Virus record (IMG/VR): IMGVR_UViG_3300034102_002845
DNA: 64,000 nucleotides
Reading direction: 5' to 3' (one strand)
Source: a virus
Lineage: Duplodnaviria; Heunggongvirae; Uroviricota; Caudoviricetes
Position 1 is the stretch's first letter, and each line of letters starts with the position of its first letter. The notes below the pieces were generated by a model, which did no database searches, had not been told where the DNA came from, and was given only the letters and a program-made list of their open reading frames with translations. A program made the position numbers and the translations under genes. This document shows, piece after piece, positions 15,726 to 61,891 of the stretch.

Positions 15726-16493
15726 ATGGCACACACAGACACTCTCGGAGACCTCCTTAAGACCCAAGAACAGGCGGAAGCGGGTCGAAAAGCCGACCCG
15801 TTCCTTCCCCTTGTGGCACGTATCGACGGTAGCTGCTTCAGTGCTTTCACTAGGGGGCTAGAGCGACCGTTTGACGAGCGATTTATGCAGTTAATGATTG
15901 AAACCACCAAGTTTCTCGTTGACAAGAGTGAAGCCCAACTTGGGTACTGCCAAAGCGATGAAATTACTCTCTACTGGTACCTCGACAAGGAAAGTTTCTC
16001 GAACAGGGAGTTCTGGTTCGGCGGAAAGTTTCAAAAGCTGACCTCGATCCTGGCCGGCTCCGCATCGTCATACTTTAGTGCGAACATTCCAAAAGTTCTG
16101 CATGAAAAGCAAGGGTGCTATCCCGTGTTTGACGCGAGAGTGTGGAATGTCCCGGACTTAGAACACGCATACCTAAACTTTGTCTGGAGACAACAAGATG
16201 CGCAGAAAAACTCCGTGTCCATGTACGCTCGCCACTTCTTCTCCCACAAGTCTCTTCAGGGCAAAACCTGCCAAGAGATGAAGGAGATGCTCGCCGAAGT
16301 CGGAAAGCCGTGGGAAGAACTCCCTAAGTTTTTCACTCACGGGACGTTCGTGCGAAGACAGCGCCGTCTTGTCAACCCGGAGGATCTTGTTGGCATTCCC
16401 GAGAAGTACCGCCCGACCAAGGCAATCGTTCGCACTGTTGTTGAAAAGTGGGAGCCTTATGGGGAACTTTCCTTGAGCGACTTTGCTCCTTAG
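15726..16493 (+). CDS. thg1: Thg1-like 3'-5' nucleotidyltransferase (tRNA-His guanylyltransferase family)
   Basis: ARIDG, QSDEITL, FDARV and WRQQDAQKNSVSM motifs. Confidence 0.9.
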   Translation: MAHTDTLGDLLKTQEQAEAGRKADPFLPLVARIDGSCFSAFTRGLERPFDERFMQLMIETTKFLVDKSEAQLGYCQSDEITLYWYLDKESFSNREFWFGGKFQKLTSILAGSASSYFSANIPKVLHEKQGCYPVFDARVWNVPDLEHAYLNFVWRQQDAQKNSVSMYARHFFSHKSLQGKTCQEMKEMLAEVGKPWEELPKFFTHGTFVRRQRRLVNPEDLVGIPEKYRPTKAIVRTVVEKWEPYGELSLSDFAP

Positions 16494-18702: not shown

Positions 18703-18829
18703 TGACTAAGAGTGTTAGCGGTTAGCATGTTCCTTTGGGCGAAAACAGTAAGATAGAACGAAGGCCAAGTTCCGTATCTGTAAGTAGTTTTGGACAGAGG
18801 AGGTTGAGGTTCGAGTCCTCATTAGTCAA
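18703..18829 (+). ncRNA. tRNA-like RNA with ~52-nt hairpin insertion in the anticodon arm
   Basis: TGACTAA/TTAGTCA acceptor, TGAGG-TTCGAGT-CCTCA T arm, insert closed by AAAAC/GTTTT. Confidence 0.65.
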
Positions 18830-25690: not shown

Positions 25691-25797
25691 TGGCCTTCGG
25701 GCATTTTTCGTAGAGCGAAAAAACGAACTGAAACGTTCCTCGCAGAGGTGAGACGCTCTGCCCCTATCGGCTAACTTTTGTTTTCCGATAAGAAAAC

Positions 25798-25870
25798 GGG
25801 GGCACATGTTCCAAGGTGGCGAGGACGCTTCGCAAGCGACTTGTGATCGGTTCAATTCCGATTGTCTCCA
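25798..25870 (+). tRNA. trnA: tRNA-Ala(CGC), atypical D arm
   Basis: G3.U70; loop TTCGCAA. Confidence 0.75.
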
Positions 25871-26022
25871 TTTTCGCACTCGCGAAAATTCCTTAAGCGA
25901 GGTTGCCGGTTTGCAACTTAAGGGATGGTAATAACCGGCTAGAGTAAGGATTCCTACTCATAAGGGGACGCTCGCGACCCCAGAGTGCTTCTTAATACCC
26001 CCTGCCGTAATGCAGGGCTCAA

Positions 26023-26103
26023 TGGGGTGTAGCATAATTGGTAATGCAGCTGGCTGTTAACCAGTGTCGAAAGACAATGAAGGTTCGAATCCTTCCACTC
26101 CAG
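26023..26103 (+). tRNA. trnN: tRNA-Asn(GTT) with extra GAAA-capped variable arm
   Basis: loop CTGTTAA; TGTC-GAAA-GACA arm. Confidence 0.85.
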
Positions 26104-26169
26104 TTTCTCCTACAGGAGAATACTAAACGGGAAGAGAACCTATTTCAGATTCTCTTCATACGTTAAGAA

Positions 26170-26324
26170 CGAAGTGTGCCGGAATTGGTATACGGCGGTG
26201 TGGATTCAGCCAATACGGATGGGGTTGTGAACAAATAGCAACCTCCTAGCTCATGGTTGCAACCACCGATCAGGTAACAGCTAGACGTAATCCTGATATG
26301 AGAGTTCGAGTCTCTCCACTTTGG
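26170..26324 (+). ncRNA. 155-nt tRNA-Leu-like scaffold with expanded anticodon domain and variable arm
   Basis: CGAAGTG/CACTTTG acceptor, Leu-type D loop, GAGAG-TTCGAGT-CTCTC T arm. Confidence 0.65.
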
Positions 26325-26418
26325 TTACCCTAAAACTTAGCCCGTGTACAACGGGTGAAAAAAAGGGGGTAAAGTTTCTTTAACTGTGTACCCTTATAAG
26401 AGGGATTGCGCAGCAATC

Positions 26419-26503
26419 CGCCCCATCGACTAACGGCGTCGTAGCCAGGTTAGGTCGCTACTTTCTTAAGGTAGAAATGCCGGTTCGACTCCGGCTGGGG
26501 CGA
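26419..26503 (+). tRNA. trnK: tRNA-Lys(CTT) with ~13-nt hairpin insertion in the D loop
   Basis: CTACT-TTCTTAA-GGTAG; GGC-GTCGTA-GCC insertion. Confidence 0.7.
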
Positions 26504-26506
26504 TTC

Positions 26507-26629
26507 CCCTAAGGTAAATAGCGGAACTAAAACTGAGTTCGATTCTCGGGATACTTGGAAGTTGTGTGGGTTCGATTCCCAACTAGAGTGCCGGCGCACG
26601 GGAAGGTTCGAAGCCTTCTATCTTAGGGT
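26507..26629 (+). ncRNA. RNA with three tandem T-loop hairpins inside a closing stem
   Basis: TTCGATT, TTCGATT and TTCGAAG hairpins; CCCTAAG/CTTAGGG closure. Confidence 0.6.
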
Positions 26630-26632
26630 GAT

Positions 26633-26721
26633 GGAAGATTGGCCGAGTGGTTGAAGGCGACGGTTTGCTAAACCGTTGAGCTGCGCAAGCAGCTCCGTGA
26701 GTTCGAATCTCACATCTTCCG
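26633..26721 (+). tRNA. trnS: tRNA-Ser(GCT)
   Basis: long variable arm; loop TTGCTAA. Confidence 0.9.
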
Positions 26722-27427: not shown

Positions 27428-27586
27428 GGGAAATTAGCTCAGCGGTAGAGCCCTGGGCACATTACCCAGGTGAGTGCTTCAGTACGAGTGTCGAATGGCG
27501 GATTGATCCCCGACCTTCGCCTTTGTAACAGCACGCTCACAACCTGATCAGTTGAGAGAGCGTTGGTTCGATTCCAACATATCCCA
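27428..27586 (+). ncRNA. 159-nt tRNA(CAT)-like RNA with 92-nt variable-region insert
   Basis: CTGGG-CACATTA-CCCAG arm, normal D and T arms, insert 27470-27561. Confidence 0.7.
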
Positions 27587-28001: not shown

Positions 28002-28120
28002 GAGCAAGTAGCTCAGTTGGTAGAGCGGCAACCTCCTCTGAGTCTCGCAAGAGACTCTCGGTAAAGGACCGTAACGCTGGAGGGCAAAGCAAGCCGTTGG
28101 TTCAAGTCCAACCTTGCTCC
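28002..28120 (+). ncRNA. 119-nt tRNA scaffold with anticodon arm replaced by a branched domain
   Basis: GAGCAAG/CTTGCTC acceptor, canonical D and T arms, GAGTCTC-GCAA-GAGACTC hairpin. Confidence 0.7.
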
Positions 28121-28707: not shown

Positions 28708-28789
28708 GCGGGTATAGCTCAGCGGTAGAGCACTTGTTTTCCAAACAAGAGGCGAATAGTTCACGCAGGTTCAAATCCTGTTACCCGCT
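28708..28789 (+). tRNA. trnG: tRNA-Gly(TCC) with 15-nt variable region
   Basis: CTTGT-TTTCCAA-ACAAG; GCGAA-TAG-TTCAC arm. Confidence 0.8.
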
Positions 28790-28820
28790 CTTTTCTCTCA
28801 CGAGAAAACTTAAGTAAAAT

Positions 28821-29527: not shown

Positions 29528-29532
29528 ACATT

Positions 29533-29614
29533 GCCGGCCTGGCGGAATTGGTAGTCGCGCCTGACTCAAAATCAGGTTCCGAAAGGAGTGAGAGTTCGAG
29601 TCTCTCGGTCGGTA
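29533..29614 (+). tRNA. trnL: tRNA-Leu(CAA)
   Basis: loop CTCAAAA; long variable arm. Confidence 0.9.
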
Positions 29615-29725
29615 TGTTCTCTTAACGAGAACTTTAAACAATGCCCTGGTAGCTTGGTGTACCAGACTCGAGAGTTCAAGTATCTCATCGGGTGTAGTCC
29701 GGGTAAAACTTCTTAGCATTGCGCT

Positions 29726-58157: not shown

Positions 58158-59300
58158 ATGACAATTACACGAAAAGAAATTGAAGACGGGATGATCCTGT
58201 TTTGCAAGTCAGGCAGCCACGCCTATGGCCTCAACACCGAGATGTCTGACCTGGACTTTAAGGGCATCTGTGTTGCGCCACAGCGGTTTTACACCACTCT
58301 CGAAACATTTGAGCAAAAGGATAAAGGGTGGGCAGGGGAGCAACAAGACGAGGGTGAGTTCAACTCAAGATTCCCTGAGTTAGATAATTCCGACTCAGTG
58401 GTGTACGGCATTCGCAGGTACCTGAGCTTGTTACGGTCGCAAAACCCAAACATTTTGGAGATGCTGTGGCAAACTCCCGAAAGCTACCTATACCTTGACT
58501 TTCTGGGGCAGTCGCTAATTGATAACCGAAGGAAGCTCATTTCCAAGAGAATCTCTGGCACATTCGTTCAGTACGCAAGGTCCCAGATCAAGAAAATGGA
58601 GACTCACCGCAAGTGGCTCTTAAACCCTCCAACACGGCGACCGACGTGGGAGGACTACGGGGTTTCTTCGCCGAGCTTAACCCCCTCTCAAATCGAGTCA
58701 TTCATTGAGTACTTGTACTTGCTGATTAAAGACAGAATCGAATACTACCAGCCTTCAGTCGAGCTGTACGAGTTACTCAACGACCGAGTTGATTGGAAGG
58801 GAATCCTGAAGCAGAGTGTCTTACCGGAAGAGTGCTTCGACGAGACGCAGAAAATCACGAGGGCAAGTGACGAGTACATGGCCCTTCTTCACTCAAGCCA
58901 GCAGTACCGGTCAGATTTAAAACGGTGGAGTAATTACCAAGATTGGTTGACTAATCGGAATGTGAAGCGATCCGAAATTGAGCGGGCCTGTGGGTACGAT
59001 GGGAAGAACGCCAGCCACTGTGTTCGACTTATGAAAATGGCTATTGAGGGAATGCGAACCGGAGAGCTTCTTGTGAATAGGAAGTTAGCGGGGGACGCAG
59101 ATTTTCTTCTGGACATTAAGTACGGCAAGATTACGTATGACGAACTAAGCTCAATTGTAACTCAACTGTTTAAGGAGGCTGAGCACGTAATGACGAACGA
59201 GTGCGTCTTACCGAGCACGGTAGATGACCAACTCATCAATACTCTTTGCGCTGAGACTGTGGAAAAATTTCAAAGTCTCGGTTGTATTGAGAACCGGTGA
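58158..59300 (+). CDS. DNA polymerase beta-superfamily nucleotidyltransferase (RlaP-like)
   Basis: GSHAYG....SD.D.KG; NPNILEML; YDGKNASHCVRL. Confidence 0.8.
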   Translation: MTITRKEIEDGMILFCKSGSHAYGLNTEMSDLDFKGICVAPQRFYTTLETFEQKDKGWAGEQQDEGEFNSRFPELDNSDSVVYGIRRYLSLLRSQNPNILEMLWQTPESYLYLDFLGQSLIDNRRKLISKRISGTFVQYARSQIKKMETHRKWLLNPPTRRPTWEDYGVSSPSLTPSQIESFIEYLYLLIKDRIEYYQPSVELYELLNDRVDWKGILKQSVLPEECFDETQKITRASDEYMALLHSSQQYRSDLKRWSNYQDWLTNRNVKRSEIERACGYDGKNASHCVRLMKMAIEGMRTGELLVNRKLAGDADFLLDIKYGKITYDELSSIVTQLFKEAEHVMTNECVLPSTVDDQLINTLCAETVEKFQSLGCIENR

Positions 59301-61305: not shown

Positions 61306-61499
61306 CTGAAGGAGACCTAGAAAAGTTGGTAGAAAACGGAGACATTCTGAGCTACTCTTACTTAGAGGTTAAAGATTACCAGGGCTCACACTGCGGAGAA
61401 TACCTACAACTCAATTTACCGTCCGGAGCTTGCATAGGGGTAAGCTCGTGGTCAACTCCCGCCCCTGAAACGAGTGGGCTAAGAATAGGAGTTTATTAG
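61302..61499 (+). CDS. hypothetical protein
   Basis: ATGA overlap. Confidence 0.5.
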   Translation: MTEGDLEKLVENGDILSYSYLEVKDYQGSHCGEYLQLNLPSGACIGVSSWSTPAPETSGLRIGVY

Positions 61500-61530
61500 G
61501 CGGACAGTCCTACCATACGACTCTAAACTA

Positions 61531-61831
61531 GGGGTAGCTCTGGAAGATAGTGCCCTATACAGGGGTTCGAATCCCCTCACCTCCATTTGAGAACGTGACC
61601 GTCCCTTCTTCAACCTTCCGACTTACTGAGAAGGCAGGGTCACTGTGGGTTAAACTCCCACCTCTAGTCAAGGGGGTGCCATGGTCTCGCTAGGGTAAAG
61701 ATGTCGCCTGAGTGAAAGCCGCTTGCATAAGCACAAAATAGACGCTAACAACATCGTCAAATTCGAGAGGATTGCCGTTGCCGTTTGAGCAACCGCACTC
61801 TGACTCATAACTCGGGGGGTTTCGGCCCCCT
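61531..61831 (+). ncRNA. ssrA: two-piece (circularly permuted) tmRNA: acceptor piece ~61531-61585, intervening segment, coding piece from 61672; tag (A)ANNIVKFERIAVAV
   Basis: AGGGG-TTCGAAT-CCCCT T arm and CACCTCC-A lie upstream of GGGGGTG (G3.U70); helix TAGGGTA/TGCCCTA; tag ORF 61744-61788. Confidence 0.9.
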
Positions 61832-61891
61832 TACACCGCCAACTTTCCTGGCCAAAACAGCACCCTACACTCCAACCCACGCTGAAACACT

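Follow-up and report, generated by a model that had tools for sequence, protein, structure and literature searches.

In the 64,000-nucleotide stretch of phage DNA analysed here (IMG/VR virus record IMGVR_UViG_3300034102_002845, "the window" below), a 155-base RNA gene at 26170-26324 on the + strand, inside the transfer RNA (tRNA) array of a large phage, specifies a non-decoding RNA that derives from a class-II tRNA-Leu and cannot read codons. The cloverleaf frame of this element is complete, with a 7-base-pair (bp) acceptor stem, a D arm with GG, a T arm with TTCRA and a long variable arm. There is no 7-nucleotide (nt) anticodon loop; a 63-nt structured insert stands between the strands of P2, the stump of the anticodon stem, and is tied to the loop of the variable arm by a 6-bp pseudoknot. 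The element belongs to a phage-only RNA family, which is new, well supported and falls within the known but unexplained class of phage tRNA-like stable RNAs. The structural and evolutionary side of this account is practically certain. The parts of the window copy, with their behaviour in an alignment of 35 distinct sequences of the family (A3), are as follows.

26170-76/26317-23, + strand: acceptor-like closing stem of 7 bp; 7/7 pairs covary and 87.8% of cells are paired.
26179-95, + strand: D arm, with a 3-bp stem (26179-81/26193-95; 3/3 pairs covary) and an 11-nt Leu-type loop with GG.
26196-200 (CGGTG)/26264-68 (CACCG), + strand: P2, the anticodon-stem stump, with a 26:44-like pair and 4 bp; 97.1% of cells paired.
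26201-26208, + strand: junction J2/3, UGGAUUCA, which holds TTCA(G); 8-9 nt in all members.
26209-11/26255-57, + strand: P3, 3 bp; 100% of cells paired.
26212-26220, + strand: junction J3/4, a 9-nt single strand, highly conserved in A3.
26221-26245, + strand: P4 hairpin, with an 8-bp stem and an A-rich terminal loop; 5/8 pairs double-changed, 96.8% paired.
26246-26251, + strand: 5' strand of the pseudoknot, CTAGCT, directly 3' of P4; covaries with 26279-84.
26269-26297, + strand: long variable arm, with a 6-bp stem (26269-74/26292-97, ATCAGG/CCTGAT), an internal loop, a 2-bp helix (26277-78/26287-88) and an 8-nt loop.
26279-26284, + strand: 3' strand of the pseudoknot, AGCTAG, in the variable-arm loop; covaries with 26246-51.
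26300-26316, + strand: T arm, with a 5-bp stem and a TTCGAGT loop; 99.4% paired, 4/5 pairs covary.
26317-26324, + strand: 3' strand of the closing stem and the base at the discriminator position, G; no encoded CCA.

After P2, the module runs through an internal loop, the 3-bp P3, a second internal loop and the 8-bp P4 hairpin, and six nucleotides of the variable-arm loop are paired to the 3' strand of the second internal loop. The two arms emerging from the tRNA core, whose lengths are matched and nearly invariant across A3, are bridged at their far ends by this 6-bp helix, which is contiguous with P4, and they therefore make up a closed, rigid frame. The elbow and the junction around the pseudoknot are the best-kept parts of the molecule, and the acceptor end, the discriminator and the P4 loop are the variable ones; the latter loop ranges over ~9-25 nt and is conserved neither in sequence nor in length. 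Within the junctions, J2/3 mostly keeps its UGG start and varies in the remainder, while the conservation of J3/4 is partly forced by the search pattern, and member L060, retrieved with another pattern, keeps most of it. An anti-Shine-Dalgarno mimic (ACCUCCU, 26241-47, window copy) was considered and rejected, as the stretch is paired in P4 and is not conserved.

Because a single 6-nt complement could be due to chance, the proposed structure was tested on relatives of the element, using the structure read off the window copy. Over all 45 pairs in A3, 94.4% of 1573 cells pair and 34/45 pairs have changed on both sides; the overall covariation score is 0.696, versus 0.209 in shuffles (0/500) and 0.09-0.15 in slid controls, and RNAalifold, unaided, gives the same nested helices. 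Compensatory changes are seen in every helix across the 35 members. Specifically, the outer, 26:44-like pair of P2 occurs as C-G, G-U, A-U and G-C; P3 carries a C-G to U-A double change in two members together with a G-U/G-C alternation; and the variable arm covaries at 6/6 pairs of its stem and at both pairs of its 2-bp helix (A-U 24/C-G 6/G-C 5 and C-G 27/G-C 6), with one U-A to G-C swap between the window and its nearest relative in the records searched, the phage G001. The two closing stems that a preliminary description of this locus had drawn, CGGTG/CACCG around the anticodon domain and ATCAGG/CCTGAT around the variable arm, are thus present and covarying.

The same description had paired CTAGCT with AGCTAG over a long range and had proposed homolog covariation as a check; the two blocks are exact complements, and the check turns out clearly in favour of the 6-bp pairing, which covaries strongly in the 35 homologs. 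Taken alone, the pseudoknot has 98.6% of its cells paired versus 82.7% in shuffles (0/500), a covariation score of 0.459 versus 0.137 (0/500), and 35 doubly changed cells versus 0-1 after a shift of the partner by 1-3 columns. Double compensatory changes occur in 4/6 pairs, whose composition, from pair 1 to pair 6, is C-G 22/U-A 12; U-A 32/G-C 3; A-U 16/U-A 9/G-C 8/C-G 2; G-C 35; C-G 33/U-A 1/U-G 1; and U-A 33, and nine distinct complementary block pairs are found at this place across the members. On a tree computed without the pseudoknot columns, at least 13 changes of pairing type are needed, one of them inside the window's own tight clade, and one pairing type has two separate origins. Most homologs in A3 were fetched with a pattern that leaves the pseudoknot blocks free; the 8 sequences that came from a pattern fixing these blocks all have the commonest pair and add no covariation.

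The family comprises S-CRM01, G001 and ~30 uncultured aquatic phage contigs. The Synechococcus phage S-CRM01 carries an 81%-identical copy (blastn) in an unannotated gap between tRNA-Ala and tRNA-Val, and G001, a 277-kb IMG/VR phage, carries a 97%-identical one; a three-way alignment of these copies with the window shows stronger conservation in the insert than in the tRNA body, with helices that have diverged through compensatory changes. As regards the searches, when viral contigs were scanned for exact 16-mers, most of the matches were chance ones in coding DNA. A pattern with both pseudoknot blocks fixed matched 87 loci, 8 of them real, and yielded six further copies, while a second pattern, in which the 5' junction block and the T loop were the only anchors so as to avoid bias, retrieved 13 viral and 36 metagenome loci. 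The removal of duplicates and of two chance hits left the 35 distinct sequences of A3. Over 185,579 prokaryotic species, each represented by one genome, the second pattern gave only a chance match in a Sutterella contig, a sequence that turned up in the metagenome scan as well, and among 50,697 phage records, searched by blastn also with four divergent members as queries, only S-CRM01 carries the family. Judging by the flanking DNA, the carriers belong to more than one phage lineage: S-CRM01 is a T4-like cyanomyovirus, several carriers are phages of 200-360 kb, similarity to roseobacter phages is seen in one carrier contig, and another weakly matches a Cellulophaga phage. The tRNA-array setting is common to the window, S-CRM01, G001 and the member L036, and some members lie outside arrays. 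In the literature, no description of this RNA family was found.

The chassis is assigned to class-II tRNA-Leu on account of its T arm, its D loop and the matches of the family covariance model R1. The T arm agrees in all 17 nt with that of tRNA-Leu(CAA) from the window (29532-29615), and the 11-nt D loop is of the Leu type, not of the Ser/Tyr type found in the same array, closely matching the tRNA-Leu genes of the window and RNA1 of phage T5. Within the window R1 matches the element alone (166.6 bits), and its best outside match in the material searched, which comprised few loci, is T4 tRNA-Leu (35.7 bits). The Leu-type scaffold recognised in the preliminary description is therefore retained, while its reading of TTCAG as a preserved Leu CAG-like loop holds only in part: the motif is present at 26205-09, but it is neither conserved nor a loop. 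The NAG triplet is AAG in most members, is preceded by U, A or C at the place of U33 and is followed by C, and its G forms the first pair of P3, so that the triplet is at most a relic of the ancestral Leu anticodon. The sole terminal loop in the insert, that of P4, is variable as well. The base at the discriminator position is likewise variable in the family (n=35; U 15, A 14, G 3, C 3), being G in the window and A in the 97%-identical G001. A73 is the main identity element for leucyl-tRNA synthetase (LeuRS) in all systems studied, and uniform leucylation of the family is therefore unlikely. A perfect 7-bp stem adjoins the T stem in 24/35 members; in several others, going by a reading of the flanks, the closing stem extends to 11-17 bp or has an internal loop within it, as in S-CRM01.

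Taken as a whole, the explanation that we consider the best, and rate as fairly probable, is that of a stable, non-decoding, tRNA-Leu-derived mimic that uses the pseudoknot-locked module as a binding surface. Its functional part, namely that the RNA is processed and, as a tRNA mimic, works through the binding of a factor that handles tRNA, is put forward tentatively. In its favour, the known analogues, T5 RNA1 and T4 RNAC, are stable RNAs that are expressed. The RNA would be transcribed together with the tRNA array and excised by tRNA-processing enzymes, with ribonuclease P (RNase P) acting at the 5' end and the 3' trimming/CCA machinery at the other, a route suggested by the intact acceptor/T-arm stack and elbow, and it would then accumulate as a stable RNA. 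In this form it may imitate a tRNA and offer the locked module to a partner through a surface predicted to consist of the conserved parts, i.e., the elbow and the pseudoknot junction. The candidate partner is probably a host or phage tRNA-handling protein, such as a synthetase, a modification or repair enzyme, or a tRNA-directed defence nuclease; devoid of an anticodon loop, the RNA would have nothing to decode with or to be cut in.

Several observations weigh against this explanation. The extended (11-17 bp) or interrupted closing stems fit canonical RNase P/CCA maturation poorly. Moreover, an all-against-all blastp comparison of the open reading frames (ORFs) within 5 kb of 48 loci revealed no conserved neighbouring protein, and genes for RNA ligase (PF09414), RlaP, Thg1, TROVE and RtcB are distributed inconsistently, none being present in all five large carrier genomes, and the searches for these five in S-CRM01 were all negative. 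Lastly, covariation cannot separate intramolecular from intermolecular pairing. The neighbours are miscellaneous (RlaP, RNA ligase, Band_7 twice, RecA, gp32-like and ArdC-like proteins), with an RNA ligase gene 78 nt downstream of the copy at one locus and RlaP near the copy at another. Since no repair or tRNA gene family is common to the carriers and S-CRM01 is without any of them, a host factor is the likelier partner.

A variant that appears rather unlikely views the tRNA-Leu chassis as a delivery and stability frame for an aptamer-like module that would capture a host molecule, the RNA acting as an anti-defence decoy or sponge. Candidate targets would be a tRNA-directed defence nuclease, another immune effector or a small signalling ligand. 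If this were the case, T5 RNA1, T4 RNAC and other anticodon-less, tRNA-shaped phage RNAs would make up one functional class, and the 50-year-old "stable RNAs" of T4 and T5 would gain a function.

The RNA could instead be charged, either delivering leucine outside decoding, e.g., by way of an aminoacyl-tRNA transferase, or tying up LeuRS/EF-Tu. Bacterial LeuRS ignores the anticodon, and the same logic lies behind the alanine-specific transfer-messenger RNA (tmRNA); a Leu chassis might thus have been chosen because its synthetase does not read the part that the insert replaces. The Leu-type body, the recurrence of the same chassis in T5 RNA1, the perfect 7-bp acceptor stem straight after the T stem in 24/35 members and the A at the discriminator in 14/35 are what such a carrier would be expected to display. 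However, A73 is restricted to these 14 members, U is as common, and the window has G where G001 has A; several closing stems are extended or interrupted, without the design of a free 3' end, and no CCA is encoded. A chargeable carrier is accordingly considered unlikely.

The 6-bp pairing might also form between molecules, the internal-loop strand of one RNA binding the variable-arm loop of another to originate dimers or rings, in the manner of phi29 pRNA, in which loop-loop contacts build multimers. Covariation is equally expected for a pairing in trans, and both strands lie in exposed loops. Conversely, the arm lengths are matched and near-invariant in all members, as ring closure within one molecule needs, and the 5' strand is contiguous with P4, so that the helix can stack on it; besides, no packaging or structural context was seen. 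These features make an intermolecular contact improbable, and the pseudoknot is taken here as a pairing within one molecule.

Much less credible is an interrupted tRNA-Leu gene, in which an insert of ~56 nt would be removed after transcription to release a decoding tRNA-Leu(CAG). This possibility draws on the TTCAG at 26205-09, on a window array that is without a tRNA-Leu(CAG) and on CGGTG/CACCG, which could act as an anticodon stem. Position 37 of tRNAs is a purine, and no junction restores U33, the anticodon and R37 together: the triplet is AAG in most members, the U before it is not conserved, C is the base after it, and its G takes part in P3. In addition, the insert covaries with the variable-arm loop, which would remain in the "exon", and a group I intron would need far more than 63 nt; no Rfam ribozyme or intron matched at E up to 10, and we know of no protein-splicing route for such inserts in bacteria or phages. 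As for a decaying tRNA pseudogene or a complementarity due to chance, which would suit the silence of the tRNA finders on the element and the other sub-threshold tRNA-like remnants nearby, it is refuted by covariation: between the window and S-CRM01, conservation is higher in the insert than in the tRNA body, and the fold, which the preliminary description had attributed to selection rather than decay, is kept across distant phages of unrelated background with compensatory changes in each helix of the 35 members and a covarying pseudoknot.

In the window, the + strand holds all long ORFs, and there are 43 genes for tRNAs, plus a permuted tmRNA whose tag is of the cyanobacterial type. The element occupies part of the 315 bp that separate tRNA-Asn (26023-26103) from a tRNA-like gene (26419-26503) in the array, on the same strand, and ARAGORN makes no call for it there. 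Rfam 15, run over 25700-26700 at gathering scores and also at E up to 10, returned only a T-loop fragment; the tRNA family RF00005 left the element unmatched at both settings, and RF00023 (tmRNA) matched only a T-loop-sized fragment (8.7 bits). The minimum free energy fold of the single sequence is unexceptional (z = -1.74), and single-sequence energy therefore says little about the element.

Other parts of the array are unusual in their own right. The spacer 3' of the element (26325-26420) folds with z = -3.85 into two hairpin domains. The next gene, 26419-26503, is called by ARAGORN as an 85-nt tRNA with anticodon UUA, which reads the UAA stop, and scores only 31.4 bits as an Rfam tRNA, its acceptor stem containing mismatches; this may be a suppressor or some other tRNA-like RNA of a non-standard type. 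It is followed by a 128-nt stretch (26504-26631) with a closing stem of ~10 bp and three successive T-arm-like hairpins with GTTCGA-type loops, for which Rfam gives only fragment matches to the tmRNA T loop. Three more tRNA-framed RNAs lie in the array at 18703-18829, 27428-27586 and 28002-28120 (fold z = -2.2, -3.5 and -2.9, respectively), with acceptor, D and T arms and a big structured domain at the anticodon or variable position; as R1 matches none of them, they are regarded as other modules on tRNA frames. Two class-I tRNAs, tRNA-Asn(GUU) at 26023-26103 (81 nt) and the second tRNA-Gly(UCC) at 28708-28790 (83 nt), have ~10 nt extra in the variable region, which is unusual for this class. 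The tmRNA gene at 61496-61879 is phage-encoded and permuted (two-piece), and its tag peptide, ANNIVKFERIAVAV, is of the cyanobacterial type. A Thg1-like protein of the tRNA-His guanylyltransferase family (15726-16490, E 1e-25), encoded just upstream of the first tRNA of the array, and an RlaP-family RNA-repair nucleotidyltransferase (58158-59297, E 1.5e-18) together form a phage tRNA maintenance kit.

Extra "stable RNAs" encoded in phage tRNA clusters, such as RNAC and RNAD of T4 and RNA1 of T5, date back as a class to the 1970s, and their roles are unexplained. The family described here gives this class a well-sampled alignment and a tertiary fold proven by covariation across unrelated aquatic phages, and in one member that is in culture (S-CRM01, host Synechococcus LC16) the RNA can be deleted and probed. 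RNA genes under selection can occupy array gaps for which tRNA finders make no call, and a recurrent design is indicated, in which a leucine-tRNA frame carries a foreign module. If the module binds a defence or translation factor, this would be a new phage use of tRNA mimicry.

Among known RNAs, class-II tRNA-Leu (RF00005) shares with the element the acceptor, the D arm, the T arm and the long variable arm, whereas the element is without an anticodon loop, has a larger variable arm with a conserved loop and does not fix its discriminator. The tmRNA and the YrlA-type Y RNAs, both of which occur in phages, likewise join a tRNA-like half to a structured half that is pseudoknotted or binds protein. 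Unlike tmRNA, the element has an A-U pair at 3:70 instead of G3:U70 and no tag reading frame, and the window has a tmRNA of its own; unlike YrlA, it gives no match to Rfam RF02553, and its ends make an acceptor stem rather than a Ro-binding stem, with a TROVE/Ro gene in 1/5 carrier genomes.

T5 RNA1, annotated as a "tRNA-like stable RNA with unknown functions" (NC_005859 30501-30644), comes from a phage tRNA cluster as well. It has a near-identical Leu-type D arm, an acceptor stem, a hairpin variable arm and a T arm, and its anticodon loop is replaced by a stem, an internal loop, a short helix and a hairpin in the same order as in the element; it scores 41 bits over the full length of R1, with the inner module skipped in the alignment. 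Conversely, this inner module is 33 nt long, versus 49 model positions, and is unrelated in sequence, and by eye there is no convincing complement between its variable-arm loop and its own insert. From these sequence comparisons, T5 RNA1 appears to be a relative in kind, not a member of the family, and perhaps a distant homolog of the chassis.

T4 RNAC (species 1 RNA, rnaC) is a stable RNA of the T4 tRNA cluster, and its role, like that of RNAD, is unexplained (PMC3014915, PMC9697503); Northern blotting has demonstrated its presence (PMC9697503). Unlike the element, it lacks a D arm; it shows no sequence similarity to the element and no match to R1. In T4 RNAC (L108:1409-1547, - strand), the loop of the long arm, UUGACG, and that of the variable-arm-like hairpin, CGUCAA, complement each other exactly over 6 nt, and neither loop varies among five diverged Tevenvirinae copies (alignment A4) in which the surrounding stems have changed. 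This pattern suggests a candidate loop-loop tertiary pairing, which we have not met in any description so far; it would join two loops, instead of an internal loop and a loop as in the element, and, with no variation to covary, it is unproven. The acceptor-like stem, the canonical T arm, the long arm at the anticodon position and the hairpin at the variable-arm position are nevertheless common to both RNAs, as is the same design principle, by which two arms are tied by 6 bp.
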